From Candidatus Aenigmatarchaeota archaeon (lineage in GTDB: Archaea > Aenigmatarchaeota > Aenigmatarchaeia > CG10238-14 > SpSt-28), in the NCBI GenBank assembly GCA_039000985.1, contig JAWBMD010000004.1, forward strand, positions 2,345 through 66,344: DNA of 64,000 nt, given 5' to 3'. Both the position numbers and the translations under genes were made by a program. Shown in pieces: positions 839-43,508 of this stretch. Numbering within the stretch: the first letter of the stretch is position 1; every line of letters starts with the position of its first letter. The notes beneath the pieces are model-generated. The model was not told where the DNA came from and ran no database searches. It saw only the letters and a list, made by a program, of their open reading frames with translations.

Positions 839-2152
839 ATGAATGAAGAAAAAATAATGGAAATTATGTCAGATTGGAATTATTGGGGTAATTATCAAAA
901 GGAATTTATAGAAAGAAAAGATTATCAGTATAAAATAGAGAATCTTTCCAAAGGAAATGAGATAATAGTTATAAAGGGTATTAGAAGGGGTGGAAAATCT
1001 TCTATTTCTTACTTTTTTCTCAAAAAACTTATAAATTCTGGATTAAATCCAAGAAAAATCATAATTATTAATTTTGAAGATCCAAGACTTCCGCCAGTTT
1101 TAACTTTAAGCGAAGTTAATAAGATATTTGAAACTTATTTGAAAAAAGTAGAAAACAGGCCGGAATACGTTATGTTGGATGAAGTTCAATATGTGGAAAG
1201 ATGGGAAAAATTTGCAAGGTTTTTGACAGAAGCGAAAAATATAAAAGTGATTGTTACTGGCTCGTCTTCAAAACTCATGAGTGAAGAATATGTTACTGTT
1301 TTAACCGGTAGGCATGTGGATATCGAAGTGTTTCCGTTATCGTTTAGAGAGTTTCTTCATTTTAAAGGATTAAAAATAGAGGAAGAAATTGAAATGATAA
1401 AAAAAAGAATAGAGATTAAAAGACTTTTGGATGAGTATTTAGAGTGGGGAGGTTTCCCCGAGGTAACTCTTGCAGAAAACAAAGAGAGAAAAATGGAATT
1501 ATTAAAAATATATTTTAACGATATTTTGCTTAAGGATGTGGTTAAAAGATATAAAATAAAGAAAGTTATTGAAATAGAAAATCTGGCAAAACTTTACATT
1601 TCAAACATTTCAACTATTCAATCCTTTCACAAACTAAAAGAAATTCTAAATATAAGTTTAGATAGTGTTGAAAGATTTTCTAAGCATCTATTAACTGCAA
1701 GGCTCTTTCTCTTCTTAGATAATTTTAGTCCTTCCATAAAAACACAAATTAGAAGCAAAAAGAAAGTTTATACAATTGATTTGGGATTTTATAAAATGCA
1801 TGGATTTAGACTTAGCGAAAATATAGGAAGAATAATGGAAAATGTTGTTATGTTACATTTAGCTAGAAAAATGGAGTTTCATCCACTTTTGAAATTTTTT
1901 TATTTTAGGTCAAATGATTATGAAGTTGATTTTTTAATTAAAAATGGTTTAGAAATAAAGCAATTAATTCAAGTAACTTATGCTTCTAGTAAAGATGAAA
2001 TTGAAAAAAGAGAAATTAAAGCTTTGTTAAAAGCAAGTGAATTATTAAAATGTGAAAACTTGTTAATAATAACTTGGGATTATGAAGATGAACTAAAAGT
2101 TAATAATAAAAAGATTAAATGTATTCCTTTATGGAAATGGTTACTATCTTAG
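839..2152 (+). CDS. COG1373-type AAA+ ATPase paralog 2 (AAA_14 + DUF4143-like + conserved C-terminal module)
   Basis: Walker A GIRRGGKSS, Walker B MLDEVQ, GGFPEV motif, and the shared C-terminal module. Confidence 0.85.
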   Translation: MNEEKIMEIMSDWNYWGNYQKEFIERKDYQYKIENLSKGNEIIVIKGIRRGGKSSISYFFLKKLINSGLNPRKIIIINFEDPRLPPVLTLSEVNKIFETYLKKVENRPEYVMLDEVQYVERWEKFARFLTEAKNIKVIVTGSSSKLMSEEYVTVLTGRHVDIEVFPLSFREFLHFKGLKIEEEIEMIKKRIEIKRLLDEYLEWGGFPEVTLAENKERKMELLKIYFNDILLKDVVKRYKIKKVIEIENLAKLYISNISTIQSFHKLKEILNISLDSVERFSKHLLTARLFLFLDNFSPSIKTQIRSKKKVYTIDLGFYKMHGFRLSENIGRIMENVVMLHLARKMEFHPLLKFFYFRSNDYEVDFLIKNGLEIKQLIQVTYASSKDEIEKREIKALLKASELLKCENLLIITWDYEDELKVNNKKIKCIPLWKWLLS

Positions 2153-2191
2153 CAATATAACCACAAGCTTTTTAAAAATGTTTGTGATTAT
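1910..2191 (+). repeat. Shared 3' module, copy 2, extending 42 nt past the stop codon
   Basis: The coding part aligns with copies 1 and 6. The post-stop 42 nt (2150-2191) recur at 4898-4939 with 2 mismatches. Confidence 0.9.
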
Positions 2192-2197
2192 AATATT

Positions 2198-3487
2198 ATG
2201 AACATTGAAGAAATTAAAAGAGTTATAGTAGCTCAAAAAGAAGAAGTTGAGGAAAAATTTAAGAAAACGAAAATAATTAAAAGAGAAGCTGATAAGAATA
2301 AGCTGAAAAAGTATCTGTTACATCCAAATATATTAGCGATTTTGGGAATTAGAAGATGTGGGAAATCAATTTTTTCATTACAAATTTTTGAAGGAGAAAA
2401 ATATGGATATATAAATTTTGATGATGAAAGACTAACAGAATTTACGACAAAAGATTTTGAGAAATTGCTACAAAGCTTTTATGAACTATATGGAGAAATA
2501 GATCATATAATTTTGGATGAACCACATAATATACATGCTTGGGAGCTTTTTACTAATAGATTGAGAAGAACAAAAAAGGTTATAATTACTGGAAGTAATT
2601 CAAAGCTTTTATCTGGCGAATTAGCAACTCATTTAACTGGAAGATATATTGATTTTACTTTGTTTCCATTTAGCTTTAGGGAGTTTTTACAATATAATGA
2701 TATAATTTTTGAGAACGAAAACCTTTACTCAACAAAAAGATTGGCTCTTGTAAAAAATAGTCTTAACAACTATCTAAAAATTGGTGGTCTCCCAGAGGCT
2801 TATTTATTTGGAAAAGAAATTCTTGTGAGAATTTTTTCTGATATAGTCGAAAAGGATATTTTGAAAAGATTAAAAATAAAGAAGAAAGCTACATTTAAAG
2901 AGCTTGCAAAATATTTAATAGCAAATTCTTCATCAGAAACAACATTTTCTAAATTGAGAAATATTTTCAATATAAAAGATTTACATACTATAAAAGATTG
3001 GATAAATGAGATGGAAAATGCGTATCTAATAAAACTTATTAACAGATTTTCTCCTAAGTTAAAAGAACAATTTATTGCACCAAAAAAAGTTTATTGCATT
3101 GATGTCGGAATTGTTAATGTGATTGGATTTAAGATTACTCAAAACATAGGCAGACTTATGGAGAATTTAGTAGCTATAGAGCTTCTTAGAAAAAAAAGTT
3201 ATTGGTTTGATGATTGGGAAATTTTTTATTGGAAAGACTACCAGCAAAATGAAGTGGACTTTATTGTAAAAGAAGGATTAAATATTAAACAACTGATTCA
3301 AGTAACTTATGCTTCTAGCAAAGATGAAATTGAAAAAAGAGAAATAAAAGCTTTAGTTAAAGCTTCTGAGCAATTAAAATGCAAAGATTTATTAATAATT
3401 ACTTGGGATTATGAAGATGAATTAAAAGTGAATAGCAAAAAAATTAAATGCATTCCTTTGTGGAAATGGCTGTTAAGCTTAGCATAA
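2198..3487 (+). CDS. COG1373-type AAA+ ATPase paralog 3
   Basis: Walker A GIRRCGKSI, Walker B ILDEPH, GGLPEA motif, and the shared C-terminal module (variant ASEQLKCKDLL / KVNSKKIKC). Confidence 0.85.
   Translation: MNIEEIKRVIVAQKEEVEEKFKKTKIIKREADKNKLKKYLLHPNILAILGIRRCGKSIFSLQIFEGEKYGYINFDDERLTEFTTKDFEKLLQSFYELYGEIDHIILDEPHNIHAWELFTNRLRRTKKVIITGSNSKLLSGELATHLTGRYIDFTLFPFSFREFLQYNDIIFENENLYSTKRLALVKNSLNNYLKIGGLPEAYLFGKEILVRIFSDIVEKDILKRLKIKKKATFKELAKYLIANSSSETTFSKLRNIFNIKDLHTIKDWINEMENAYLIKLINRFSPKLKEQFIAPKKVYCIDVGIVNVIGFKITQNIGRLMENLVAIELLRKKSYWFDDWEIFYWKDYQQNEVDFIVKEGLNIKQLIQVTYASSKDEIEKREIKALVKASEQLKCKDLLIITWDYEDELKVNSKKIKCIPLWKWLLSLA
3224..3487 (+). repeat. Shared 3' module, copy 3
   Basis: The 5' block (FYWKDYQQNEVDF) matches copy 5, the middle block matches copy 4, and the 3' block matches copy 2. 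Confidence 0.85.
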
Positions 3488-3562
3488 GAAAGTGTGTAGT
3501 TTTCGAATTTAAAGCTGTATAATTTAAAATATGTCACAAATGACGTAAAATATTAATTTTTT

Positions 3563-4900
3563 ATGTCACAAATGATATATATGAAGAAAGAGGAAATAAT
3601 AAATGTGTTATCTCAGGTTAATTTTTGGGGAAGAGAAAATATAGATGTGGGGATAGAGAGAAAATTCTATAATCCTCGAATATTAAATTTTTTAAAAGGT
3701 GTTGAAAAGGTATTAACAATAATTGGAGTTAGAAGAAGTGGAAAGAGTTATATATTAAAACAGATTGGAAAAAAGTTATCAGAAGAGTTTGGAAAAGAAA
3801 ATGTTCTTTATGTTAATTTTGAGGAGGTTAAGTTTTTTGAGGAGCTAAGCTTATCTTTTTTAATAAAAATATACGATGCTTTTAAAGAGATTGTGAGACC
3901 AAAAACAAAACCTTTTTTAATTTTGGATGAAATCCAAGAAGTTCCAAAATGGGAAAAGTTTGTTAGAAGTTTGCATGAAAAAAAGGAAGCTTTTCTTATA
4001 ATTTCCGGCTCTTCCTCTAAGCTTTTTAGCGAGGAACTTGCTACTTTATTAGCTGGTAGAGAATTAGAGATAGAAGTATTTCCATTGGATTTTAAAGAGT
4101 TTCTCCAGTTTAAAAATTTTGAGATAGAAAAGGAAATAGATTTAATTATAAAAAAAGAAAAAATTATAAGATTTCTTAGAGAATTTTTAGAATTCGGTGG
4201 TTTTCCAGAGGTTGTTTTAGAAGAAAATGAAAACAAGAAAATTGGTATTATTAGAAAATATTTTGATACAATAGTATTAAAAGATGTTTTAAGAAGGTTT
4301 AAATTAAAAGAAAGTTATAAGTTAGAAGCGCTTTGTAATTATTATGTTTCAAACTTTTCAAACTTAATAACTTTTAATTCTGTTGCGAGATTTCTTAAAA
4401 TTTCTGAAAAAACTACTGAAAGATTTTCAAAATATTTGCAGATTGCCAGAATTATATTTTTTGTTGAGAGATTTTCATATTCTTTTAAGTCAAGATATAA
4501 ATCTGCTAGGAAAGTTTATGTTATAGATACTTCCTTTTCGAATTTATTAGGAGTAAGGTTTTCAGAAAATATAGGCAGACTTATGGAGAATTTAGTTGCT
4601 ATAGAATTGCTAAGAAGAGCGAAAAGAAGTTTAAAAGAAAATTTCTTTTATTTAAAAATTAATGACAGCGAAGTAGACTTTGTAATTAAAGAAGGTTTAG
4701 AAATAAAGCAATTAATTCAAGTAACTTATGCTTCTAGCAAAGATGAAATTGAAAAAAGAGAAATAAAAGCATTAATTAAAGCTTCCGAGCAATTGAAATG
4801 CAAAGATTTATTAATAATAACTTGGGATTGTGAAGATGAATTGAAAATTGAAAATAAAAGTATTAAATGTATTCCTTTATGGAAATGGTTGCTATCATAG
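3563..4900 (+). CDS. COG1373-type AAA+ ATPase paralog 4 (the ATG at 3581, MKKEEII, may be the true start)
   Basis: Walker A GVRRSGKSY, Walker B ILDEIQ, GGFPEV motif, and the shared C-terminal module. Confidence 0.85.
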   Translation: MSQMIYMKKEEIINVLSQVNFWGRENIDVGIERKFYNPRILNFLKGVEKVLTIIGVRRSGKSYILKQIGKKLSEEFGKENVLYVNFEEVKFFEELSLSFLIKIYDAFKEIVRPKTKPFLILDEIQEVPKWEKFVRSLHEKKEAFLIISGSSSKLFSEELATLLAGRELEIEVFPLDFKEFLQFKNFEIEKEIDLIIKKEKIIRFLREFLEFGGFPEVVLEENENKKIGIIRKYFDTIVLKDVLRRFKLKESYKLEALCNYYVSNFSNLITFNSVARFLKISEKTTERFSKYLQIARIIFFVERFSYSFKSRYKSARKVYVIDTSFSNLLGVRFSENIGRLMENLVAIELLRRAKRSLKENFFYLKINDSEVDFVIKEGLEIKQLIQVTYASSKDEIEKREIKALIKASEQLKCKDLLIITWDCEDELKIENKSIKCIPLWKWLLS

Positions 4901-4939
4901 CAACATAACTACAAGCTTTTTAAAAATGTTTGTGATTAT
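4670..4939 (+). repeat. Shared 3' module, copy 4, extending 42 nt past the stop codon
   Basis: The middle block matches copy 3 and the 3' block matches copies 1, 5 and 6. The post-stop segment 4898-4939 matches 2150-2191. Confidence 0.9.
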
Positions 4940-4993
4940 TAGAGTTTCCCGTTATAGGTAAACTTTTTAAATAATCTTTCCTAAATATATGAT

Positions 4994-6271
4994 ATGTTTG
5001 AAAAGGATTTTGTGCTTCAATATTTCAACAAACTAATGGAAAAAATTAAAACAGAAAGGATTTTTGAAAGAGAATTAAAGGTTGATTTTCTTAAAAATAA
5101 AGCTATAGCAATAATTGGGCCAAGAAGATCTGGGAAAACTTATTTTTTACTCAACATTTTAAGAAACAATAAAAACACTTTGTATGTTGATTTGGAACAT
5201 TCTGCCTTTAGAGAAATCACACATAAAGAATTCTTTGAAATAATATCAATTTTTGAAGAATACTTTAAAGCTAAAGTTGAAAAAGTGATTATTGATGAAA
5301 TACAAAACTTAAATAACTGGGAAAGTTTAGTGAGAAGTTTACTTGATAGTGGATATTATTTGATGTTTTCTGGCTCCTCTTCAAAATTGTTAAGCAAGGA
5401 AATTGCAACCCAATTAAGAGGGAGAAGCATAACTTATTTTTTATTACCCCTAAGCTTTAGAGAGTATCTTGAGTTTAAAAATATAGAAAGAAAAAAACTT
5501 TTCTCAATTTCAGAAAAGGTGAAGATAATTAAATTTTTAGAAGAATTCATAGAATGGGGTAGTTATCCTGAAATATTAGCTTATCCTGAGAAAAAGGAAA
5601 AAATTTTGAAAGAATATTTTGATACAATTTTTCAAAAAGATTTTATAGAAAGATTTGAAATAGTACATACTTACATTGCAAAATTGCTTTTTGAATTCAT
5701 TTTACAAAATTTTTCAAAAGAAATAAGTTTAAACAAAATATCAAACTTTATTTCTTCAAAAATTGGGAAGAATGTTAAAAACATTGTTTATGATTATGCA
5801 GAAAAATTGCCAGAAAGCTTGAGTGTGTTTTTTGTAGAGAAATTTAGCAAAAGCGTTTATGAAAGAAAATCATTAGGAAGAAAGGTTTATGTTTGCGATT
5901 TGGGTTTAGTATCCATGCTAAGTATGGAAAGAAATATAGGTAAAAGAATGGAAAACACGGTCTTTCTCGAGTTATTGAGAAAAACAAACATCATTCCACA
6001 ACAAGAGATTTTTTATTGGAAGGATTACCAGCAAAATGAAGTGGATTTTGTTATAAAGGAAGGATTAAATGTTAAGCAATTAATTCAAGTTACTTATGTA
6101 AACAATAAAGATGAAATTGAAAAAAGAGAAATTAAAGGTTTGTTAAAAGCTAGCGAGCTATTAAAATGTGAAAACTTGCTAATAATAACTTGGGACTATG
6201 AAGATGAATTAAAAATTGAAAATAAAAGTATTAAATGTATTCCTTTATGGAAATGGTTATTGGAGCAGTAA
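4994..6271 (+). CDS. COG1373-type AAA+ ATPase paralog 5
   Basis: Walker A GPRRSGKTY, Walker B IIDEIQ, GSYPEI motif, and the shared C-terminal module. Confidence 0.85.
   Translation: MFEKDFVLQYFNKLMEKIKTERIFERELKVDFLKNKAIAIIGPRRSGKTYFLLNILRNNKNTLYVDLEHSAFREITHKEFFEIISIFEEYFKAKVEKVIIDEIQNLNNWESLVRSLLDSGYYLMFSGSSSKLLSKEIATQLRGRSITYFLLPLSFREYLEFKNIERKKLFSISEKVKIIKFLEEFIEWGSYPEILAYPEKKEKILKEYFDTIFQKDFIERFEIVHTYIAKLLFEFILQNFSKEISLNKISNFISSKIGKNVKNIVYDYAEKLPESLSVFFVEKFSKSVYERKSLGRKVYVCDLGLVSMLSMERNIGKRMENTVFLELLRKTNIIPQQEIFYWKDYQQNEVDFVIKEGLNVKQLIQVTYVNNKDEIEKREIKGLLKASELLKCENLLIITWDYEDELKIENKSIKCIPLWKWLLEQ
6011..6271 (+). repeat. Shared 3' module, copy 5
   Basis: The 5' block matches copy 3. The middle and 3' blocks match copies 1 and 6. 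Confidence 0.85.
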
Positions 6272-6354
6272 ATATAGCTTCTTGCAACAAATAATAAAAA
6301 TTATGTAAAGTTAACTGAACAAAAAATTTAAATTTTATTCACTATACTTAATTT

Positions 6355-7605
6355 ATGAGAGAAATATTGGAAAGGCAAAAAACTGAAGCTAAGGAAATTT
6401 TATCAAAAGAAATCATTCCAAGAGAAAATATTAAAAATATAGAAAAATATATAGAAAAACCTTTAATAAAAGTCATTACAGGTATAAGAAGAAGTGGAAA
6501 ATCTTTGTTGGCACTATTGCTTATTAAAGATAAAAACTATGGATATGTAAATTTTGACGAGAAAGAGTTAAGTACAATAAAATTAGATGATTTGCTGAAT
6601 TATTTAAAAGAAGTATTTGGTGATTTTAAATTTCTGCTCCTTGATGAGATTCAAAATATTGATGGATGGGAACTTTGGGTCAATAGCTTGCAAAGAAGAG
6701 GTTATAATGTTTTAATCACAGGCTCAAATGCAAAGCTTTTAAGCAAAGAATTAGCTACACATTTAACTGGAAGATATGTAGAATTTGAAAATTTTCCATT
6801 TAGCTTTAGAGAGTTTTTAGTATTTAAAAAATTTGACACTAATAACTTACTCTTTTTGAAAGAAAAACAAGGCTTAATAAAGAATTTACTAATGGAATAT
6901 TTAGAAAGGGGTGGTTTTCCAGAATATTTGGTTCATAATTTAGATAAAAATTACTTGGAAACACTTTTTCACTCTATAATTTACAAAGATGTTGTTAAAA
7001 GATGGAATATAAAATATCCTAGAAAAATAGATGATTTAGCAAAATATATAATTTCGAACTATTCCTCGCAATATACTTTTACTAAACTAAAAAATTCTTT
7101 AAATTTTAGAAGTGTTCTAACAGTTGAAAACTACATGAAATATTTAGAAGAAGCATACTTAATATTTTCACTTGAAAGATTCTCATTTAAAGTTAAAGAA
7201 ATGAAAAAATCGCCAAAAAAAGTTTATTGTATTGATACTGGTATAATAAATGCCATTTCTGTAAAATTTTCAAAAGAAATTGGAAAATTAATGGAAAATC
7301 TTGTATTTTTAGAACTTAAAAGAAAAGGATTAAAAGAAAACTTTTCAATATTTTATGGTCAGTTTAATAATAACGAGGTTGATTTTTTAATTAAAAATGG
7401 TTTAGAAATAAAGCAATTAATTCAAGTAACTTATGCTTCTAGTAAAGATGAAATTGAAAAAAGAGAAATTAAAGCTTTGTTAAAAGCAAGTGAATTATTA
7501 AAATGTGAAAACTTGTTAATAATTACCTGGGACTATGAAGATGAATTGAAAATTGAAAATAAAAGTATTAAATGCATACCTTTATGGAAATGGTTATTAG
7601 TATGA
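6355..7605 (+). CDS. COG1373-type AAA+ ATPase paralog 6
   Basis: Walker A GIRRSGKSL, Walker B LLDEIQ, GGFPEY motif, and the shared C-terminal module. Its stop overlaps the next gene's ATG (ATGA at 7602-7605). Confidence 0.85.
   Translation: MREILERQKTEAKEILSKEIIPRENIKNIEKYIEKPLIKVITGIRRSGKSLLALLLIKDKNYGYVNFDEKELSTIKLDDLLNYLKEVFGDFKFLLLDEIQNIDGWELWVNSLQRRGYNVLITGSNAKLLSKELATHLTGRYVEFENFPFSFREFLVFKKFDTNNLLFLKEKQGLIKNLLMEYLERGGFPEYLVHNLDKNYLETLFHSIIYKDVVKRWNIKYPRKIDDLAKYIISNYSSQYTFTKLKNSLNFRSVLTVENYMKYLEEAYLIFSLERFSFKVKEMKKSPKKVYCIDTGIINAISVKFSKEIGKLMENLVFLELKRKGLKENFSIFYGQFNNNEVDFLIKNGLEIKQLIQVTYASSKDEIEKREIKALLKASELLKCENLLIITWDYEDELKIENKSIKCIPLWKWLLV
7375..7605 (+). repeat. Shared 3' module, copy 6
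   Basis: Its middle part matches copy 2 at the nt level and its distal part matches copy 1, giving a mosaic. Confidence 0.9.
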
Positions 7606-8934
7606 GTGAGAAAGAATTACTTAAATTAATAAAAGAAGGTGAATCGGAAACAACAGAGTTAAAGTTAAAGGTTGATGAAGAACTTGGAAAAGTTATCTGT
7701 GTTTTTGCCAATAGTAAAGGGGGAGTTATTTTAGTTGGAGTTAACAATGGATGAAGAGAAAATTGCAAACATAGCAAGCTCGTGCATACCACCAATAAGG
7801 GTGAAAACTAAAAAAATGTTGTTAAAAATTATTGTACCAAAAACTAATGAAATACATTCTTTCAAGAATATAGTATATATTGGGGTAGCTTCCAGTAATA
7901 GAGCCTTAGCTCCAAATGAAATTATTAACCTAGCTCAAAAGCTTGGAAAAGTTTACTGGAATTCTTTAATTTGTGAAGAAGCTACTTTGAAAGATATTGA
8001 TGAAGAAAAAGTTAGATGGTTTTTAAGAAAAGCCAAAATAGAAAGAAGTTTTGACATAGATTTTGAAACTCCAGTTAAAGAAGCTTTGGAGAGGCTAGGA
8101 TTAATAAAAAATGGGAAATTAACAAACGCTGCTATTTTATTATTCGGAAAAAATCCTGAGAAATTCTTTTTGCAGGCTGAAACAAGATGCGCTCGCTTCA
8201 AGGGAACTAGACCAATAGAGTTTTTGGATATGAAGGTTTTTGGTGGAAACATTATAGATCAAATTGAGAAAGCATTGAACTTTGTTCTTGAACATATTTC
8301 AATGAGAATCGAAATTAAGGGCAAAGCAGAAAGAGAGGAAATATATGAATATCCACCAGATGCTATAAGAGAAGCTATTGTAAATGCAATTTGTCATAGA
8401 GATTATACCATACCTTCTAACGTTCAAATTAGAATTTTTGATGATAGAATTGAAGTATGGGGATGTGGACCTTTGCCAGAACCTTTGAAACCTGAAGATT
8501 TTAAAGGAAGACACAAATCAATTTTAAGGAATCCTTTAATTGGTAGGTCTTTCTTTTTAATTAAGTTCATAGAAGAATGGGGAACTGGTACAAATAGAAT
8601 GATTGAAGCCTGCTTAAAACATGGTATACCCGAGCCTGAATTTGATATGGTTGAAGGAAACCTTGTTGTTACTTTCAGAAAGGATATTTATACCGAAGAT
8701 TATTTAAGAGAGTTAGGACTAAAAGAAAGGCAAATAAAAGCAATTAATTATATTAAAGAAAAGGGAAGAATAACAAGGGCAGAGTATGTGAAATTATGCG
8801 GATGTTCTGAAAGAACAGCTCTTAATGACCTTGTAGAGTTGGTTAATAAAAATATTCTTGTTAGGGCTGGTGAGGGTAAAAAAACTTACTATATCTTGCG
8901 CGCAAAAAGGAGCTTGAAAAGAGACAATAGATGA
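7602..8934 (+). pseudogene. COG2865-type protein (AlbA_2/Schlafen-like N-domain + HATPase_c_4 + C-terminal wHTH), interrupted by a frameshift near 7735-7754
   Basis: The N-terminal part (MSEKELLKLIKEGESETTELK...VFANSKGGVILVGVNNG) stops at 7752-7754. The domain continues in another frame (DEEKIANIASSCIPP...). The C-terminal part carries REAIVNAICHRDY and a wHTH. The break is not at a homopolymer. Confidence 0.7.
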
Positions 8935-11447
8935 TTATGAGAAAACCAGAAAAATTGACTAAAACAGTATTAATTGAAATTAGACAAAAACTCTTAACAA
9001 AACTTAACATAGTACTAATTTTAATTTTTTTCATTCACAAAACAGTTATTGTAAATACTCAATTTTTAGACCCAACAAAACAATTTAACCAAACTTCTTC
9101 AATAAACATAACTGGATATGCTTCTACAATTCTTCAATCAGAAATAGATTCAGCATTAAATATTAATTCAGATGGCTTAACTTGGGATGTTACTGAAGCT
9201 GATGTTACTCCACCTTTTCTTGGTCCGACAATATTCACTACTCATCAGGTCGAATCTTTATCCGTTACTCCTCTAGATTCTAATAGAATAATTTTAGCTT
9301 GGTGTGATGAAGTAAGCAAATCAATAAACTTTAAAATTTACTCTACAACAGGAGAAGTTTTAGTTGATACAGTAACAGTTGATACAAGTCCCGGAATAAC
9401 AAATGCATGTGATTATAATTCTGTTTCTGTTTCAGCTTTAAATTCAACTCATTTTGTAATAGCTTGGTTTGATGCTAGCGAACAAGATGTTTCGTTTGCT
9501 ATCTATAATTATTTAGGAAATTTGAATATTGGACCAATAGATGAAGATACGGCTGTAGGAACAAATAGTTGGGGCGTTTCTGTTTCAGCTTTCAATTCAA
9601 CTCATATTGTCATTGGATATTATGATTATGTAGATCAAGACGCTACCTTCTCAACTTGGAATTTGGTTACACAAACAAGAGTTGCTAGACCTATAGATGT
9701 TGATACAGCTGTTGGTGCAGATAGCTACAATGTTCATGTAGCAGCCTTGAATTCTACTCATTTTGTTTTTTTCTATTATGATGCTGGAGCTACTGACGAT
9801 GCAACCTTTGCTATATATACAATAACAGGAAATGTTGTAATAGCAGCTACAGACGAAGATACAAACATAGGAAATTCTTATTCTTTAGCTTCAACTGTTC
9901 TAAACTCGAGTTATTTTGTTCTTGCCTATTATGATGCTGTGGATGCAGATATTACTTTTTCTATTTATAATAGTGCTGGAACAAGAGTTGTTGGTCCAAT
10001 AGATGAAGATATAGATGTGGGGACAAGCGGAGCTTTTGTCTCTGTATCGGCTTTGAATTCAACTCACTTCGTGATAGCTTATTATGATACTATAGATGGT
10101 CAACATACTTTTTCAATTTATAACTGGAATACAAGGATTGTCGGACCTGTAGATGTTAGCAATGTAGCATCTGGTTTAAAATGGCTATCCGTTTCTTCTT
10201 ATCTTGCTGGAATTAATTTGGGGATTTGTAACCAAAATTTCGTCTTTGCAGAAGTTAATGCAACAAACAGTGCAAGATTTTTCACTTATACTCCATCTGG
10301 GACAGCATGGAACGGCTACTGCTCACCGATTTATCAAGTAACTGTTGAACATAATTCAACTATAAGCTATGTTGGAAATTTGGTTAGTTTGAATGTTTCG
10401 ATAAACTTCACTTCTACTGTTGATGATTTATATAATATGAGTATTTACGATTTTGTTAATTCAAGATGGGATTCTTCTCAATGCCAAAATATTTCGGTTA
10501 CTGCTGGTAATTATTATTTGATTTGGTGCAATATTACTACTAATCCAACAAACTATGTATCTGGAAATATAGTAGCAATAAGACTTAATTCTTCAATAGA
10601 TACAGATAAGGGAACTTTGAAAGAAGAATATGTTCAATTTTATGTTGGTTATTCTGTTGGATATTTAGAAGTTGAATTAGTACAACCAAATCCTTTAACA
10701 ATTACATACATAATACAAAACAACACATTCATAGTTAATTCTACAGTATATTGTAGAAATGCGCCTTGTGGTGATGTTTATGGTACATTAATGTACAACC
10801 TATCTTCTCCTTATCCTGATACACCAATAAACACAAGCTATGGTGATAAACCATTTTTTATAAATGAAACCCCGGCACAAGCAACAAAAGCTTGCCCGAA
10901 CAATCCTTTAAATGCAAATGATTTTTGTAATTTAACATGGATTATTAATGCTAGCGGAGAAATAAATACTAATTGGAAAATTGGTGTATTATTTAATTCA
11001 TCATTTGCTGATGTTGAAAAAAATCATACATCAAATGCAACAATTTCAATAGTTGGTTGTACAATATCTTTTACTTTACAATTTTCAACAATAGATTTTG
11101 GAAATCTTTTACCAAGAACATATAATAACTCCGCAATTGGAAACTCAAACAATTTATATAATATTACTGTGAATGAAGGTAGTTGTAATTTAAATTTATA
11201 TATTAATGGAACAGACCTTGTAAATCAAACATTTAATTCTTTTATTAAAGTTGGAAATATTAGTTGGAGTAACATAAGTAGTAATATGGATGATGGATAC
11301 TTTCCTTTATCTTATTCAGAATCTCTTATAAGAGCAAATGTCCCTGCAAACACAAATGTAACAACATGGTATTGGATAAATGTACCATCTGTATATGCTG
11401 GTATTTACAAAGGAAACATAAGTATAAAAGCAGAAAGAAGTAGCTAA
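8931..11447 (+). CDS. Large membrane-anchored or secreted surface protein with seven ~50-aa repeats and a sequon-rich, Cys-containing C-terminal half
   Basis: N-terminal hydrophobic helix (LNIVLILIFFI). Seven repeats of consensus vSVSALNSTHFVIAyYD..d.d.tFsIYn..g..v.gPiDeDt.vG. More than 30 N-x-S/T sequons counted by eye. ATGA overlap with the upstream gene. Confidence 0.75.
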   Translation: MIMRKPEKLTKTVLIEIRQKLLTKLNIVLILIFFIHKTVIVNTQFLDPTKQFNQTSSINITGYASTILQSEIDSALNINSDGLTWDVTEADVTPPFLGPTIFTTHQVESLSVTPLDSNRIILAWCDEVSKSINFKIYSTTGEVLVDTVTVDTSPGITNACDYNSVSVSALNSTHFVIAWFDASEQDVSFAIYNYLGNLNIGPIDEDTAVGTNSWGVSVSAFNSTHIVIGYYDYVDQDATFSTWNLVTQTRVARPIDVDTAVGADSYNVHVAALNSTHFVFFYYDAGATDDATFAIYTITGNVVIAATDEDTNIGNSYSLASTVLNSSYFVLAYYDAVDADITFSIYNSAGTRVVGPIDEDIDVGTSGAFVSVSALNSTHFVIAYYDTIDGQHTFSIYNWNTRIVGPVDVSNVASGLKWLSVSSYLAGINLGICNQNFVFAEVNATNSARFFTYTPSGTAWNGYCSPIYQVTVEHNSTISYVGNLVSLNVSINFTSTVDDLYNMSIYDFVNSRWDSSQCQNISVTAGNYYLIWCNITTNPTNYVSGNIVAIRLNSSIDTDKGTLKEEYVQFYVGYSVGYLEVELVQPNPLTITYIIQNNTFIVNSTVYCRNAPCGDVYGTLMYNLSSPYPDTPINTSYGDKPFFINETPAQATKACPNNPLNANDFCNLTWIINASGEINTNWKIGVLFNSSFADVEKNHTSNATISIVGCTISFTLQFSTIDFGNLLPRTYNNSAIGNSNNLYNITVNEGSCNLNLYINGTDLVNQTFNSFIKVGNISWSNISSNMDDGYFPLSYSESLIRANVPANTNVTTWYWINVPSVYAGIYKGNISIKAERSS
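9258..10316 (+). repeat. Seven tandem intragenic protein repeats (period ~50-53 aa), consistent with a 7-bladed beta-propeller
   Basis: Repeat starts were read at aa 110, 165, 215, 268, 319, 370 and 419 of the 838-aa ORF. Confidence 0.7.
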
Positions 11448-37393: not shown

Positions 37394-38839
37394 TTATTTA
37401 ATTCTATATTCTATTTTCTTCTTTTCAAACTCACCTGGAGCCATTCTATGTAAAAGATCAGCTATTGTCTGTCTATATTCCACCGCAATATCCATTATAA
37501 TTTTTAAATCTTTATTATCAATCCTCTTATCTGGAAATAATACTTTTGCTAGACCGGAAGCGAATCTAAATATACTTTTCTCGTCTCTTATTGTTACATT
37601 CTCTAAATCTACTCTATCTCTAAGGAATGAAGTAAAGTCTCTTTTTCTCAACTCATGTAAAATTTCTGAAAAGAAATCAACCGAAAATCCAAAATTTTTA
37701 GATAGGTGTATATCTGTCTTCTTAATTTTGGTAATTTCCCATCCAGGTATTACAGCATTTATTCTATCTAGAAAAGCTGTATCCCCTCTCATAAAGTCTG
37801 GTAAAGAGTAATTTATATCCTCTACTGGAATATAGCCCGATTCTGTTGGTTTGATATCCAAATTGCCCATGAAAACTAAGGAGCATAAAGATGTAGCTTT
37901 CTTTGGTCCTCTTTCAAAATGACCGCTTTCCATATAATCTTTTAACTTACCCATCATTTCATCTGTATTTCCAAATCTAATCTTTGCAATTTCATCAAAA
38001 ACTATACAATCTTTTACGCCAATTTCACCTATTGTTCTTCTAGCTATATTAAAGAATAGCTGTGCGGGGGTAATTAATCCGCCAGAAATTATTCTGGTAT
38101 AAAATGAAATATTTCGGTAGAAATATGTTTTTCCTGTAGCTCTTGGACCGAGCTCAAGTAAGTTTATGTTATTCTCAACTAAAGGAACAAAACGTGAAAT
38201 TAGTATTAATTTTTGCCTTTCACTATAAATTTCTGGATTCAGGCCAATAGTATTTATTAGAACATCTATCCATTCTTCTGTTGTAAAATATTTCCTTTTC
38301 TCAATAAATTCAGAAATATTTACATTGGTAACATGAAAAGGTTCAAACTCGTCTATCAAAATAGGTAAAGTTAATCTGTTTCCATATTCATCAGTAATAG
38401 GATTGGAAGGTCTCAAAGAAGCTAATCCCCATATACCAGAAGATAACAACTCTGGATTTTCATCGACTATCGAATCTAAAATCATAGCATCTCTAATATT
38501 GAGAGAAGGTATAATTGCTTTTCTTATCTCATGCTTTTCATCGATTTCAACTTTAATCTCATCTATAATTTTATGAGTTTCTTTTCTTATAATTATCTTA
38601 TCTAGTATTTTATCCCTATCCTTTGCTTCTGGATAAAAATTAGTTATAAGTTCAATGATTTTTCCTATTTTTTCACCTATTTTCTCTTCGCCTTTTTCTG
38701 CTACCTTTGTTAGCAAATGCTCAGAAACAAATTTGGGAACTTGTCTAATATCTTGAATATTCACTATTTTTTTGTTTACTATGTATTCTGGATAGTAATA
38801 TTTCAGTTTTGCATTTAGCTCATCTTGGTTTACTGTCAT
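37394..38839 (-). CDS. BrxL-type AAA+ ATPase lacking the C-terminal Lon protease domain
   Basis: Motifs recalled from BREX BrxL are present: EEWIDVL, VENNINLLELGPRATGKTY, GGLITPAQLFFNIARRTIG, VFDEIAKIRF, KDYMESGHFERG, VFMGN, DTAFLDRINAVIPGWEI and LRKRDF. It is 481 aa, versus ~680 aa for BrxL as I recall it. Confidence 0.75.
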   Translation of the reverse strand: MTVNQDELNAKLKYYYPEYIVNKKIVNIQDIRQVPKFVSEHLLTKVAEKGEEKIGEKIGKIIELITNFYPEAKDRDKILDKIIIRKETHKIIDEIKVEIDEKHEIRKAIIPSLNIRDAMILDSIVDENPELLSSGIWGLASLRPSNPITDEYGNRLTLPILIDEFEPFHVTNVNISEFIEKRKYFTTEEWIDVLINTIGLNPEIYSERQKLILISRFVPLVENNINLLELGPRATGKTYFYRNISFYTRIISGGLITPAQLFFNIARRTIGEIGVKDCIVFDEIAKIRFGNTDEMMGKLKDYMESGHFERGPKKATSLCSLVFMGNLDIKPTESGYIPVEDINYSLPDFMRGDTAFLDRINAVIPGWEITKIKKTDIHLSKNFGFSVDFFSEILHELRKRDFTSFLRDRVDLENVTIRDEKSIFRFASGLAKVLFPDKRIDNKDLKIIMDIAVEYRQTIADLLHRMAPGEFEKKKIEYRIK

Positions 38840-39012
38840 TTTTCCAACATTTGGAAAATCTTACTCCTAGCCAAATCATAATAGCTCGTAAAAAATTAAT
38901 ATGGGTCTACCTGACTCTATATTCGAAATAAATATCGCTAATAACATGACACAAAAACAAATTAAAACTGTCGTTGCACTCCTCGAAATGATTCTATTTT
39001 CTGACACTTTTC

Positions 39013-40398
39013 TCATCTCAACATTTCCTCAATTTCTTTATCTAAATCACTTTTAATCTTTTTTACTTTCTTTTCAGCTCCCACAAATAATTTTCTTCTT
39101 TCCTCACTTTTACTTCCACCTATATCTAAAACTACTCTTAAATTATATTCCCCAGATTTAAGTTTAGGCAAATCAAAATTTATTGTATAGAATGATTCCT
39201 TATCAATTTTCTTTATATTTTCAGAGCTTAGTATGTCAGAGTCCAGGTATACAGATATTTTAATGTCGGATAATACTTTTTCTGAATTATTAGAAATAAT
39301 ACAATTTAACTTTTTTACTTCATTTTCCTTGACAAATAATGGTTCGATTTTTATTTCAATATCTTTAGGTTTAGGTAATTCAATTTGTTCTTCTTCAATT
39401 TCCTCTTCCTCGGCTTCTCCTTCTTTTAAAATTTTCAAAGTTTTCTTTATTTCTTCTAATTCATCATCAGTAATTCCATATAGCTTAGCAACAGTCTTAT
39501 CAATTTCTTCTTCAACTTTTTTTAGTTCTTCCCAGGCAACTAAATCATTTTGTTCATAATATTTTTTAGCTAGTTCATGGGCTTTTTTGGAGAGTTCTGA
39601 AAGTTTTAAGTGAAGTTCATTTTTGGAGTTAAATTTTGGTATATTTAAATAATCTAATATATGTGACTGTAAATGTAAATGATGGTATGTTTTAATTATA
39701 AAATTTGAAATTGTAGAATTTAATATAGAACATATATAATGCGCTTCTTTATCATTTCCCAACGCAATATAATTAACAGTATAATCTGGAATGGGAATTT
39801 TATTATCAATTGATGAGTTCTCGGGATTAATCACACAAGCCTTTATTTCTTTATCTATATCTCTCCATCCTACTTTGAATTTCGACAACACATAGTTATT
39901 TAATCTATATAAGAGATAGAAAGGCTGATTTATATTTCTCTTTACATCTGCTCTGTTTTTTAGTTCTTTTTCAAATTTTTTAAAATACTCAAATGTATTA
40001 GGGTATAAAGTTTTTAATTCCTTCTCAGAAAGTGGTTCAATAGATTTAAGATTATATGGTACAATTCCAAAACTGCTAGATTTAAAATAATATTTAAAAA
40101 TGTCTTTGCCCAGTATAACTGGATATATCAAATCTTTTTCTAATGTCCAAGTTATTCTTTTAACATTTAATTTGACGTTGTCAATCATATTTTCTATAAT
40201 CACAACATCAGAACCTGTATCACCCTTTATATTAATCAAAAAAATTCCACGTGGAGTAAAACTAACACCTTCGTGGGCTTCATACCCAGAGTTACCTATT
40301 ATATTTCTTAGTTTTTCTAATAGATCTCTAGTAGGTAAAGATGCTAATGGTGGGATAAATTTTTTTTCGGGTTGTATCCCCCTATAGGTTCTGCCCAC
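39013..40398 (-). CDS. C-terminal part of an MmeI/PglX-like type IIG enzyme (target-recognition region + Glu-rich linker + CARDB-like beta-sandwich)
   Basis: TaqI_C/Eco57I-C-like patterns (LIYPVILGKDIFKYYF, YICSILNSTISNFIIK). The apparent GTG start is probably just the ORF finder's first in-frame start. The frame joins the upstream ORF through the A8 tract. Confidence 0.7.
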   Translation of the reverse strand: MGRTYRGIQPEKKFIPPLASLPTRDLLEKLRNIIGNSGYEAHEGVSFTPRGIFLINIKGDTGSDVVIIENMIDNVKLNVKRITWTLEKDLIYPVILGKDIFKYYFKSSSFGIVPYNLKSIEPLSEKELKTLYPNTFEYFKKFEKELKNRADVKRNINQPFYLLYRLNNYVLSKFKVGWRDIDKEIKACVINPENSSIDNKIPIPDYTVNYIALGNDKEAHYICSILNSTISNFIIKTYHHLHLQSHILDYLNIPKFNSKNELHLKLSELSKKAHELAKKYYEQNDLVAWEELKKVEEEIDKTVAKLYGITDDELEEIKKTLKILKEGEAEEEEIEEEQIELPKPKDIEIKIEPLFVKENEVKKLNCIISNNSEKVLSDIKISVYLDSDILSSENIKKIDKESFYTINFDLPKLKSGEYNLRVVLDIGGSKSEERRKLFVGAEKKVKKIKSDLDKEIEEMLR

Positions 40399-42677
40399 AT
40401 GACTATTCTATTAGTTTTTTTCATAAACTCCTCCAAAGATATTTCCTGATCTATTTCTTTTCTATCAGACTTATAAAGAATGTAAGGCGTGGGAAATTCT
40501 GTTTTCTCTCCTTTTACAGCTACAAAAAGAGCCGTTCTATTCTTTGCACCCTCAAATGGTAAAAGTTCAGATAAATCGTGAACCTTTAATAATTTTATAT
40601 CGAAGTTATCTGTTCTTAATCTTAGAAAACCAGATCCTGCAAACGATTTAAAAACAATTTGAGTAATTAGAAAACCTAAAATACCCTTATCTTTTAAATA
40701 ATAGTCGATACATCTATATACAAAAAGAGTAGAAATATCTATCTTAGTTGAATAAGGTCCTGGTGGTAAAATATTGTATTTTTTATATAACTCCTTTATC
40801 CTCTCTCTATAGGCTTCTGGAAGATTTGGCCAATGCACCCAAGGAGGATTTCCAACAACATAGTCAAACTTTCCAATTAGCAATGGAGCAAAAGAGTTTT
40901 TCAATAATTGTGTCCAAATCTTATTTTTATGATACTTATATTCTAAATCATAAATTTTCTTGTATAATCTCATTATTCTTCCAAAAGAAATCTTTGATAT
41001 AGTAATATTTAGTTCTATTAACTTCCTACTAAGATATTCTCGAAATTCGTCTCCACTATATTCTAATTTTACCCCCTCATCAATGTAAAGAAGAATTTCT
41101 TTTAGAATATTTTTTTCAATAATTTCCTTAGGTATCCAAAATTCTCCTTCAGTAGTATATAGTCTAAATTCTTCTTCTCCTTCAGTAGCTAATGTTTTCC
41201 ATTTTTGCCCAATTTCAACAGATATGGAATCGGCAAGATAAATTGGAATTTCTATTCCTTCTCTTGGTCTATATCTAAGTAAATCCGACAAAGCTATCAA
41301 ATAGTTTGCTTTTGATGCTAAAACGGCGAGAGGATTAAGATCAATTCCTTTAACATTATTTATTATTTTTTGTATTAATTCACGTTTATCGAGAAAATGC
41401 TCATCTGCATATTCCTTAATTCGTTTAATAGCCAACACGAGAAATGTACCAGAACCACAAGCTGGATCTAAAACTCTTTTATCAGGATTTCCATCATAAC
41501 CAACTTCATTCAAAAGTAATTCAGCTAACCAATCTGGTGTAAAATATTCGCCCAATCTGTGTCTTATGTCTCTTGGAAGTAAATTCTGATATAATCTTTT
41601 AAATAAGTCCTTCACTCTTTCAGGATTTAATTCAATCGTAGCTGGTTCGTAATCTAAAAGTTTTTTGATTAATTCAAAAATAGATTCAGCTATTTTATCG
41701 TTCCATTCATCTAAATACCAAGCAAAATAATCAGCTTCTAAGAAATTTCTTATTCCAAGTTTTGCAAATATTCCACCTTCTTCCAAATCTTTCAGCTCTT
41801 CCAACATTTCATTATGATTTCGGTAGTAAGCTTCTTCAAGTTTCTTAAGATAAGAACCTAGAAGACTATCAGCAAAAAGAGTGACAATTTCAGAGGTTAA
41901 TAATTTCATCAAAATTGTATAATAAGTATGAATAGCGAAGAGTAATTTTTCAACATCGATTTTCTCTTGATTAGCTAATTCATAATATTCGACTAAACCA
42001 GCTAATTTATCTTTAGAGTAGGAACATACTTGAGAAAATACTCTCTTCCAGTCATTAAACAACATTTCAGTTCTCGGCAAATTTTTGCCTACCAGAGAAT
42101 TGTAAAGTGTTAAAATAATTTTTTTACTTATTGTACTTTTAGGTCCAAAATCTAAAAGTAGAAATTCTATATCTATTAGTTTTCTTCTTAAGCCTCGAAT
42201 AGACTCTAACAATCTAAGAACAGTTTGTGCATTAACCTTTAGCGGCTTTTCTTGCTCTTCCCACTCGTTTTTTCTAAATCTAACGAATGCAATATTATAA
42301 CCATCAAGAACTATAGCAAAGTACCTTCCATAATATTTTTGATCAACAGCTTCCTTTTTGATATATTCTTTAACCTGTTCTTTTGCTTTGTTAAATTCAG
42401 CTCTATTATCTAACTTTCCTGGAGCTTTATATTCTATTATAACATGTCCGTAAAGAGCGTCCTTTCTAACACCAGAAATCTCATGTCTATGCTCATAAGA
42501 AGCCCATTGAATACCCCATTTTTCTAATATTGGTCTTAAAGTTGTTTCAACTCTTATTTTTAATTCTTCTTCATTTTTAGACTCAGATGCATGTTGTAGT
42601 ATTTCGTTAGCTAGCTTACGAGTGTCTATTTGCTCTAGACCAATTTCTTCTCGAGATGTCTTTACTATTTCATTCAT
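40344..42677 (-). CDS. N-terminal part of an MmeI/PglX-like type IIG enzyme (PD-ExK-like motif + helical region + gamma-class N6-adenine methyltransferase)
   Basis: SAM motif VLDPACGSGTFLV and catalytic GNPPWV. The N-terminal RKDALYGHVIIEYKAPGKL fits the D-x(n)-E-x-K pattern of MmeI-family enzymes. Confidence 0.8.
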   Translation of the reverse strand: MNEIVKTSREEIGLEQIDTRKLANEILQHASESKNEEELKIRVETTLRPILEKWGIQWASYEHRHEISGVRKDALYGHVIIEYKAPGKLDNRAEFNKAKEQVKEYIKKEAVDQKYYGRYFAIVLDGYNIAFVRFRKNEWEEQEKPLKVNAQTVLRLLESIRGLRRKLIDIEFLLLDFGPKSTISKKIILTLYNSLVGKNLPRTEMLFNDWKRVFSQVCSYSKDKLAGLVEYYELANQEKIDVEKLLFAIHTYYTILMKLLTSEIVTLFADSLLGSYLKKLEEAYYRNHNEMLEELKDLEEGGIFAKLGIRNFLEADYFAWYLDEWNDKIAESIFELIKKLLDYEPATIELNPERVKDLFKRLYQNLLPRDIRHRLGEYFTPDWLAELLLNEVGYDGNPDKRVLDPACGSGTFLVLAIKRIKEYADEHFLDKRELIQKIINNVKGIDLNPLAVLASKANYLIALSDLLRYRPREGIEIPIYLADSISVEIGQKWKTLATEGEEEFRLYTTEGEFWIPKEIIEKNILKEILLYIDEGVKLEYSGDEFREYLSRKLIELNITISKISFGRIMRLYKKIYDLEYKYHKNKIWTQLLKNSFAPLLIGKFDYVVGNPPWVHWPNLPEAYRERIKELYKKYNILPPGPYSTKIDISTLFVYRCIDYYLKDKGILGFLITQIVFKSFAGSGFLRLRTDNFDIKLLKVHDLSELLPFEGAKNRTALFVAVKGEKTEFPTPYILYKSDRKEIDQEISLEEFMKKTNRIVMWAEPIGGYNPKKNLSHH
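40360..40367 (-). other. A8 homopolymer on the coding strand at the junction of the two methyltransferase ORFs
   Basis: The coding strand reads CCG AAA AAA AAT TTA TCC. An A9 tract, or a -1 slip on A_AAA_AAT, gives ...NPKKKFIPPLASLPTRD... and fuses both ORFs. Confidence 0.9.
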
Positions 42678-43112: not shown

Positions 43113-43508
43113 ATGAGAAGAAAAAGACCAAAAGAAGAGAAAGTTATGGAAATAATAAAAAGAATAGTTTCTTCAAGATTAATGGTAGATTCACTTGAAA
43201 AGCTATACTTTTTTGTTTTGGAGAAGCTGAAAAAAGAAGATAAAGAATACAGTATATCTCCTCAAAGAATTAAAAAAATAGTAATGAAAATGAATGAAAT
43301 AAACATGAAAGTGAAAACTAGGGAAAGTACAAGCATTAAAAAAATAAATGAATGTCCTGTATGCAAAAGTAGTTTGGAAGAAATTAAAACAAAAAATTTA
43401 GCAAACAAAGATGTTGTTATTGGTTATAAATGTAGTAAATGCGGATACAAAAGTGATTTAAAATCGTTTGCTCCAATGAGATATGTTTTTCTGAAAAAAA
43501 TAAACTAA
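43113..43508 (+). CDS. Hypothetical protein with C-terminal Zn-ribbon
   Basis: CPVC...CSKC. No family recognised. Confidence 0.45.
   Translation: MRRKRPKEEKVMEIIKRIVSSRLMVDSLEKLYFFVLEKLKKEDKEYSISPQRIKKIVMKMNEINMKVKTRESTSIKKINECPVCKSSLEEIKTKNLANKDVVIGYKCSKCGYKSDLKSFAPMRYVFLKKIN

Follow-up and report, generated by a model that had tools for sequence, protein, structure and literature searches.

Bacteriophage exclusion (BREX) systems contain no classical restriction nuclease, and how they block phages is unsettled, with the role of BrxL among the open points. BrxL forms ATP-dependent, MCM-like rings on DNA, and its ATPase is needed for restriction (PMC10164562). The protein has been stated to be limited to BREX types 1 and 4 (PMC12839542, PMC10164562), and a form without the Lon-like domain is known from type 4 (PMC12839542). 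BREX types without BrxL use a helicase instead (PMC10164562, PMC12839542), and auxiliary effectors are embedded in BREX loci too (PMC12839542). A preprint defines a BREX locus by the presence of PglZ and BrxC (PglY) (bioRxiv 10.64898/2026.04.28.721311). In this study, we analysed a two-gene locus in a 64-kb stretch (hereafter the window) of contig JAWBMD010000004.1 from a Candidatus Aenigmatarchaeota genome (GCA_039000985.1). The locus encodes a type IIG restriction-modification enzyme followed by a short BrxL without the protease domain, and the same pair recurs in distant archaeal lineages. The type IIG partner of the short BrxL is what is new here, and the pairing seems to be undescribed: no description of a link between BrxL and type IIG enzymes was found in the searchable literature, a scope outside which most subscription journals fall.

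Several described systems resemble the locus in part. Type IIG/IIL enzymes (Eco57I-like; DrdV, 7LO5; BpuSI, 3S1S) have the same nuclease, gamma-class methyltransferase and target-recognition domain in one chain. The window enzyme adds a tail of ~127 amino acids (aa), with an acidic linker and a CARDB-like domain, and it has a dedicated AAA+ partner gene, whereas the classical members and solo relatives are one-gene systems. With BREX types 1 and 4, the pair shares a true member of the BrxL family, in the short form of type 4 (PMC12839542), a PglX-like methyltransferase fold, the alternation of BrxL with a BrxHI-like helicase, and embedded defence genes. Unlike BREX, it consists of two genes only, without PglZ, BrxC, BrxA, BrxB or PAPS reductase, and its methyltransferase, which carries a conserved nuclease, falls outside PglX when judged by profile score. 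The type ISP enzymes LlaGI (5FFJ) and LlaBIII (4XQK), both among the fold matches, likewise have an N6-adenine methyltransferase and a target-recognition domain together with a nuclease and a motor driven by ATP, and are the nearest functional analogy of the mechanism proposed below. Their motor is a superfamily 2 helicase-like domain in the same chain, whereas here it would be a separate ring-forming MCM-like AAA+ protein. Hma or 'BREX-related' (BR) systems comprise a DUF1156 methyltransferase, a DUF499 ATPase and a helicase, with or without PglZ (PMC12839542). They are methylation-based with a swappable motor, and close relatives of the window BrxL occur in such loci. However, their methyltransferase belongs to a different family and has no fused nuclease, and their extra DUF499 and PglZ-like genes are not present in the window.

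The genes and motifs of the locus, all on the minus strand, are as follows.

39013-42677 (-): whole type IIG restriction-modification gene, 1221 aa with the frame restored, frameshifted here; assigned by its PDLC03630 match and by identity to the intact protein P0242
40344-42677 (-): open reading frame (ORF) 1, 777 aa; PD-(D/E)XK nuclease, helical region and gamma-class N6-adenine methyltransferase
39013-40398 (-): ORF 2, 461 aa as listed, GTG start; target-recognition domain, helical hairpin and C-terminal tail
42426-42461 (-): nuclease catalytic motif D73-x8-E82-x-K84, DALYGHVIIEYK; located by position check and alignments
41442-41468 (-): methyltransferase motif I, DPACGSGTF, S-adenosylmethionine binding
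40839-40853 (-): methyltransferase motif IV, GNPPW, catalytic
40360-40367 (-): frameshift site, A8 on the coding strand (T8 on the plus strand); A9 restores the frame
39016-39396 (-): C-terminal tail, residues ~1095-1221; acidic linker, CARDB/immunoglobulin (Ig)-like beta-sandwich and short basic helix
38840-39012 (-): 173-nt spacer, holding a non-conserved 46-codon ORF and a palindrome
37394-38839 (-): short BrxL, 481 aa; BrxL_N DNA-binding region and MCM-like AAA+ ATPase
38126-38149 (-): BrxL Walker A, GPRATGKT, residues 231-238
37991-37996 (-): BrxL Walker B, D282 and E283

The two genes thus stand on one strand, enzyme first, with a gap of 173 nt. The ORF coordinates, motif positions and gap agreed with those of the original prediction. 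The predicted setting, between the glmSMU operon and a housekeeping block, was also seen: the island lies between GlmS, GlmM and GlmU-like genes and a ProRS block. The G+C content was ~0.30 in the island and ~0.26 in the flanks.

Both parts of the enzyme matched the PADLOC profile PDLC03630 (REase_MTase_IIG), ORF 1 with 729 bits over model positions 12-770 and ORF 2 with 235 bits over positions 783-1099 of 1100. The frame shifts after residue 768, and the last 8 codons of the 777-aa ORF are out of frame. One added A (A8 to A9) joins the ORFs, running from GGYNPKK through one further K into FIPPLAS, and gives a 1221-aa protein that equals the intact P0242 residue for residue; in P0242 the nuclease, methyltransferase and target-recognition domain lie in one polypeptide. 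The reconstruction, with motifs I and IV located, bears out the gamma-class N6-adenine methyltransferase of ~1220 aa that had been proposed for the fused ORFs. The D-x(n)-E-x-K nuclease pattern expected near the N-terminus was found as D73, E82 and K84. These three residues were invariant in a 15-sequence alignment (A2), and in a 33-sequence alignment (A4) the E was invariant and the D and K were at least 90% conserved. In the 15- and 33-member alignments, the D, P, C, G, S, G, T and F of motif I were invariant, its A was at least 90% conserved, and GNPPW of motif IV was invariant or nearly so. The target-recognition region (residues ~750-1000) and the tail were the least conserved parts; a weakly conserved recognition region is usual in restriction enzymes that diversify their specificity. 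By its sequence, the protein is a single-chain type IIG restriction-modification enzyme, with predicted cleavage and methylation.

The original prediction called the enzyme MmeI/PglX-like, which holds at the level of fold and superfamily and not as family membership. Pfam matches on the joined enzyme were Eco57I, N6_Mtase, a short MmeI_Mtase stretch (35.6 bits, 56 residues, 401-456) and CARDB near the C-terminus; the scan gave no MmeI_N, MmeI_hel, MmeI_TRD or MmeI_C match. The PADLOC PglX profile scored 53 bits, and the best of the NCBIfam PglX models reached 48.7 bits against a cut-off of 400, the cut-offs of the others going up to 900. The fold likeness came from the AlphaFold2 model of ORF 1 (mean predicted local distance difference test [pLDDT] score 81.4, predicted template modelling score 0.82), whose best PDB matches by Foldseek were PglX/BrxX 8C45 (top) and 9EWZ, DrdV 7LO5, LlaBIII, LlaGI and BpuSI. 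In the model of ORF 2 (mean pLDDT 83.6), a target-recognition domain similar to the one of M.BseCI comes first; a helical hairpin and a disordered acidic linker follow it, then a seven-strand beta-sandwich, and a short helix closes the chain.

The 481-aa protein is a BrxL-type ATPase without a protease domain, as had been predicted. It matched Pfam BrxL_N (94.4 bits) and BrxL_ATPase (374.8 bits), and NCBIfam TIGR02688 with 489.7 bits against a cut-off of 329.3; since the TIGR02688 model has 449 residues, it describes the protease-less family. In the alignment with 8EMC, the structure of a 679-aa BrxL from Acinetobacter, the protein covered residues 4-464 of that structure (E = 3e-71). The alignment stops at residue 464, and therefore the protein ends before the C-terminal Lon-like domain. 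The long-form type-1 model TIGR02653, whose family has a Lon-like (or HKD) domain at the C-terminus, gave 336 bits against a cut-off of 628, over positions 2-466 of 675. These strong profile and structure matches exclude the outcome, named beforehand as a possible refutation, that the ATPase would lack a BrxL-family match. G231, P232, A234, T235, G236 and K237 of Walker A and D282-E283 of Walker B were invariant in the family alignment (A1). The short BrxL family comprised 1463 candidate proteins at E ≤ 1e-10, nearly all of ~475-485 aa. The BrxL ORFs of loci L015 and L022 (~10001-11395; loci are designated by L numbers) were called at 632 and 645 aa, above the usual ~475 aa. The lack of the Lon-like domain is in itself a known feature, that of type-4 BREX BrxL (PMC12839542).

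No further BREX gene accompanies the pair. PADLOC profiles (E ≤ 1e-5) detected no PglZ, BrxC, BrxA or BrxB among the 47 other window ORFs of at least 150 aa. Pfam, run on ten selected ORFs including all of at least 585 aa, found ribonucleotide reductase, M1 peptidase, tRNA synthetases and the like, and no BREX core gene. The absence of PglZ and BrxC, asserted in the original prediction, thus holds across the 64 kb; the two genes that define BREX are missing, and an ordinary BREX locus with PglZ or BrxC nearby was rejected.

The pair is not confined to the window. In a scan for short BrxL with one genome per GTDB species, ORFs were called and clustered in 80 loci, of which 58 were informative. 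The type IIG family stood just upstream of BrxL on the same strand in 20 of the 58; BrxL lay in a DUF1156 methyltransferase/DUF499 ATPase locus in 14, in a locus containing PglZ in six, and in another context in 18. In a reciprocal scan, metagenomes were queried with the enzyme family; 42 of the 80 loci had at least 1.5 kb of downstream sequence, and BrxL followed the enzyme in nine of these, with BrxL fragments besides at the contig ends of L093, L096 and L132. Absence of the pairing from other genomes had been named as a further possible refutation, and these counts dispose of it. The same order was found in L001, L002, L083 and L173; the pair has different chromosomal surroundings in L001 (Pacearchaeota) and L002 (Bathyarchaeia), and in L002 an intact 1219-aa enzyme ends two bases before BrxL. 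The carriers are Aenigmatarchaeota, Pacearchaeota, Woesearchaeota, Bathyarchaeia, Nitrososphaerota, ANME-1, Thermoplasmata, Korarchaeia and Thermoproteota among archaea and Thermotogaceae among bacteria, and the chromosomal setting of the pair differs among these lineages. In a neighbour-joining tree of BrxL, the enzyme-linked proteins fell into a few large clades, all members of which have the enzyme where upstream DNA is available. The pairwise identities of enzyme and BrxL across 20 complete pairs were correlated (r = 0.82), a value that none of 2000 permutations reached.

The other settings of short BrxL were recorded as well. Thirteen loci (L014, L033, L036, L039, L040, L045, L048, L049, L052, L059, L060, L068 and L076; BrxL at ~position 10000 of the locus) carry a DUF1156 methyltransferase (HmaB-like), a DUF499/HmaC-like ATPase, BrxL, a weakly PglZ-like protein of 270-300 aa and a small DUF7680-type protein. 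This set resembles the published 'Type-3 BR' system, with BrxL standing where the helicase is described. Seventeen loci of other context were pooled (L024, L026, L028, L031, L032, L037, L044, L046, L047, L050, L056, L057, L058, L061, L063, L074 and L079). Their neighbours included five mad3-like and three mad8-like proteins (of MADS, the methylation-associated system), one BrxC match and one BrxB match. BrxL seems to partner with several methylation-based systems.

Enzymes followed by BrxL differ from the others at the C-terminus. They have 1207-1253 aa, and enzymes without BrxL have 1054-1157 aa, with the sole exception of L139 at 1193 aa; the extra tail length is confined to BrxL-neighboured enzymes. 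Pfam CARDB matched the window tail with 25.5 bits, and its modelled beta-sandwich resembled the CARDB structures 2KL6 and 3IDU (Foldseek TMt ~0.7), with matches to complement MG domains too. The tails of nine other clades consist of an acidic linker, ~100 beta-rich residues and a basic C-terminal peptide. Because their Pfam matches were mostly sub-threshold Ig-like, one CopC match (30.4 bits) being above the cut-off, the homology of the tails rests on the common layout and on the single model of the window protein.

The slot between enzyme and BrxL holds variable inserted genes on the same strand, and the outer pair is kept around them, as expected if the two genes work together. The cargo included the following.

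L003, 4096-4620: RNase H/PolB-exonuclease-like protein
L004: DUF6978 and DUF1828
L009, L088 and L008: PIN domain proteins
L012, 335-2461: Argonaute (Piwi and PAZ), pAgo
L088, 3019-5666: PIN and GmrSD-HNH enzyme
L019, 6908-9409: SMC-like ATPase
L008, 5776-9912: second methyltransferase and BrxC/D-like ATPase

In a sister enzyme clade (11 loci), an SNF2 helicase of ~900-945 aa lies downstream, in the place of BrxL; its best PADLOC match was BrxHI (342 bits, E = 3e-102). The enzymes of this clade have ~1090-1120 aa, with the helicase just downstream in L107, L125, L130, L147, L150, L152 and L160. The replacement of BrxL by a BrxHI-like helicase points to a motor role for BrxL. Another setting of the enzyme was observed in L109, L116, L122, L123, L127, L134, L138, L151 and L157, where two genes of ~382 and ~557 aa, the latter weakly mad8-like, stand upstream; where downstream DNA exists, it carries a ~465-aa gene and/or a ~360-aa radical-SAM-like gene.

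The best explanation as a whole is, in our judgement and on balance, a defence module of two genes, gained by a DPANN (Aenigmatarchaeota) genome through horizontal transfer, in which BrxL works with the type IIG enzyme. It is very probable that the two genes function together as one defence module. In the host genome, the enzyme would place N6-methyladenine at its own asymmetric site. Where foreign DNA is unmethylated, it would stay bound and would recruit or load rings of BrxL by way of its tethered Ig-like tail. Driven by ATP, BrxL might then add long-range communication or translocation that licenses cleavage, and/or block replication of the invader. BrxL would thereby supply what single-chain type IIG enzymes lack, and the module would be a split, BREX-flavoured counterpart of the ATP-dependent type ISP or type III enzymes. 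More tentatively, and with a little less than an even chance of being right, we propose that the tailed type IIG enzyme and the short BrxL are an undescribed, archaea-wide ATP-dependent restriction system with a BrxHI-like sister form, a bridge between single-chain restriction enzymes and BREX, in which BrxL is docked via the Ig-like tail and is needed for restriction. The specific model of tail docking and motor action is possible but rather doubtful. The original prediction of a minimal hybrid of BREX and type IIG restriction-modification met no refuting outcome in the three tests that were run.

Near-identical genomes carry different versions of the enzyme gene. JAWBNI010000007.1 (GCA_039000875.1, an Aenigmatarchaeota metagenome-assembled genome [MAG]; L083) is 99.986% identical to the window over 21.7 kb, with three differences, two of which are single-base indels inside the enzyme gene. 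At the first, the window has A8 and L083 has A9. At the second, L083 lacks the C at window position 39592, and its protein ends at 1035 aa. The Logan assembly of SRR27730013 (contig L173) encodes the intact 1221-aa P0242 and differs from the window over 14.6 kb by one single-nucleotide polymorphism (43223, in a zinc-ribbon ORF) and the A9/A8 indel. An exact-sequence look-up confirmed three enzyme alleles among near-identical genomes: the 777-aa product of the window allele, listed at NCBI under three MAG protein accessions; the 1035-aa product, seen in a single assembly; and P0242. BrxL was intact and identical in four NCBI MAG protein accessions.

Several of the observations weigh against the proposed restriction system. 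The window copy is frameshifted, and the system may do nothing here. The enzyme gene was fragmented in about one-fifth of the BrxL-linked loci (the window, L083, L001, L013 and L019), although part of this fragmentation may be MAG assembly noise. The proposed role of the tail toward BrxL rests on correlation. In 33 of the 42 metagenome loci there was no BrxL match, and in several of these a helicase or a different conserved gene accompanies the enzyme instead. Homologs on bacterial plasmids are distant (28-31% identity, ~1050-1085 aa) and stand alone in both of the records examined. The core of the enzyme can therefore do without BrxL, and one clade has gained the tail together with BrxL; BrxL could then add an independent layer rather than license cleavage.

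Alternatively, BrxL could be a safety or regulatory partner that restrains or times a potentially self-toxic type IIG nuclease, or promotes host methylation, without acting on invaders itself. Such a role would fit the recurrent knock-outs, which strike the enzyme gene and spare BrxL in near-identical genomes and so suggest that the enzyme is costly; the existence of solo enzymes likewise implies cleavage without need of BrxL. We consider it unlikely, since restriction by BREX needs the BrxL ATPase (PMC10164562), methylation in BREX is attributed to the five core components other than BrxL (PMC12839542), and a BrxHI-like helicase stands in for BrxL in the sister clade, in keeping with a motor role.

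The frameshift in turn might be an assembly or sequencing error in a gene that is intact in the organism. The break does fall in a homopolymer (A8 against A9), and an intact copy exists in another assembly one polymorphism away over 14.6 kb. Yet the 777-aa product is recorded under three separate NCBI MAG protein accessions, a second, non-homopolymer frameshift of the gene is found in another assembly, and the window's other length-8 A/T runs (20 in total) show no length change within the 21.7 kb common to L083. An error is thus improbable. Given the three alleles in near-identical genomes, the frameshift most probably exists as an allele, with the enzyme gene knocked out independently at least twice in this population. 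The original prediction read the enzyme as one protein 'when fused', which the joined sequence supports; that the break itself is a polymorphic allele goes beyond it. Because the A9 tract has contracted to A8, the system in the window is probably either switched off or, with slippage at the tract, leaky. Slippage at A8 that rescues some full-length protein is possible by analogy with other AT-rich genomes. A conserved recoding signal at the tract was ruled out: L083 and L173 have A9 at the site, but the 85%-identical ortholog L003 has no homopolymer there and reads CCGAGAAAAGAA, and the A9 tract is therefore specific to the lineage.

A chance neighbourhood, with two independent defence genes merely co-located in a defence island, is still less plausible. 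Defence genes do cluster, other defence genes are inserted between the two, and the enzyme family can stand alone. Chance, however, does not readily account for an order and strand that are the same across more than 30 loci from distant lineages and unrelated contexts, for the co-divergence of the two proteins (r = 0.82), for a tail seen only in enzymes followed by BrxL, or for a pair that inserted cargo leaves unbroken. Finally, a remnant of an ordinary type 1 or 4 BREX locus after loss of PglZ, BrxC and the rest, which would explain a BrxL otherwise reported from these types only (PMC10164562, PMC12839542) and its type-4 style short form, is highly improbable given the lack of any BREX core gene in 64 kb, a nuclease-bearing methyltransferase that is not PglX (≤ 49 bits against cut-offs of ≥ 400) and a two-gene layout that is stable across phyla. 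A two-gene module in which BrxL works with the enzyme remains our preferred explanation.

Other features of the window were also examined. The palindrome that the original prediction noted upstream of the BrxL start, TTCCAAATGTTGGAA, is present at 38842-38856. The window contains 56 perfect 6-3-6 inverted repeats, and this one has no counterpart in the orthologous loci L003, L001 and L088; a role as an operator or regulatory site was therefore rejected, and its presence is at chance level. The 46-codon spacer ORF overlaps the enzyme stop codon (ATGA) and has a hydrophobic stretch. It was rejected as a gene: no mid-spacer counterpart exists in L003 and L088, and the one ORF in the L001 spacer, of 24 codons, is unrelated. 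No tRNA gene, as a candidate integration site, lies within 28-50 kb of the window. A virus-borne origin was unsupported, the IMG/VR scan giving seven distant BrxL relatives of 31-38% identity.

Divergent from the enzyme gene is a 131-aa zinc-ribbon ORF at 43113-43508 (+), with weak matches to NCBIfam GapS6a (E = 1.2e-4), Elf1 and Trm112; it was not found beside the system in L001 or L003. At 839-7605 (+), there are five tandem paralogous ORFs of 437, 429, 445, 425 and 416 aa, of which the later four share 40-51% identity with the first. Pfam, run on one of them, gave AAA_14 with DUF4143, and all five match the PADLOC candidate system PDC-S01 (best E = 2.9e-118). They are followed at 7735-11447 (+) by a 399-aa HATPase_c_4/HTH protein and an 838-aa ORF without a Pfam match. 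Single PADLOC matches among the window ORFs in the batch scan were pAgo, Aga_SIR2-PNTD, SNc+LTD protein, Csa3 and mad8.

The recurrence of short BrxL with a type IIG enzyme contradicts the statements that confine BrxL to BREX types 1 and 4. BrxL would be a mobile 'motor' module common to BREX, Hma/BR-like loci, type IIG enzymes and possibly MADS-like neighbourhoods. When systems are called from known gene sets, such loci would probably be reported as plain type IIG and the partner overlooked. In the pair, the same ATPase is stably coupled to a conserved nuclease enzyme in a two-gene unit, and questions about BrxL become testable in minimal form, namely whether it licenses cleavage, translocates along DNA or blocks replication. 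If the proposal is true, this would be, with two genes against six, the simplest system for working out how BrxL acts. The occurrence of intact and frameshifted alleles in near-identical DPANN genomes hints that an episymbiotic archaeon may switch its restriction on and off.

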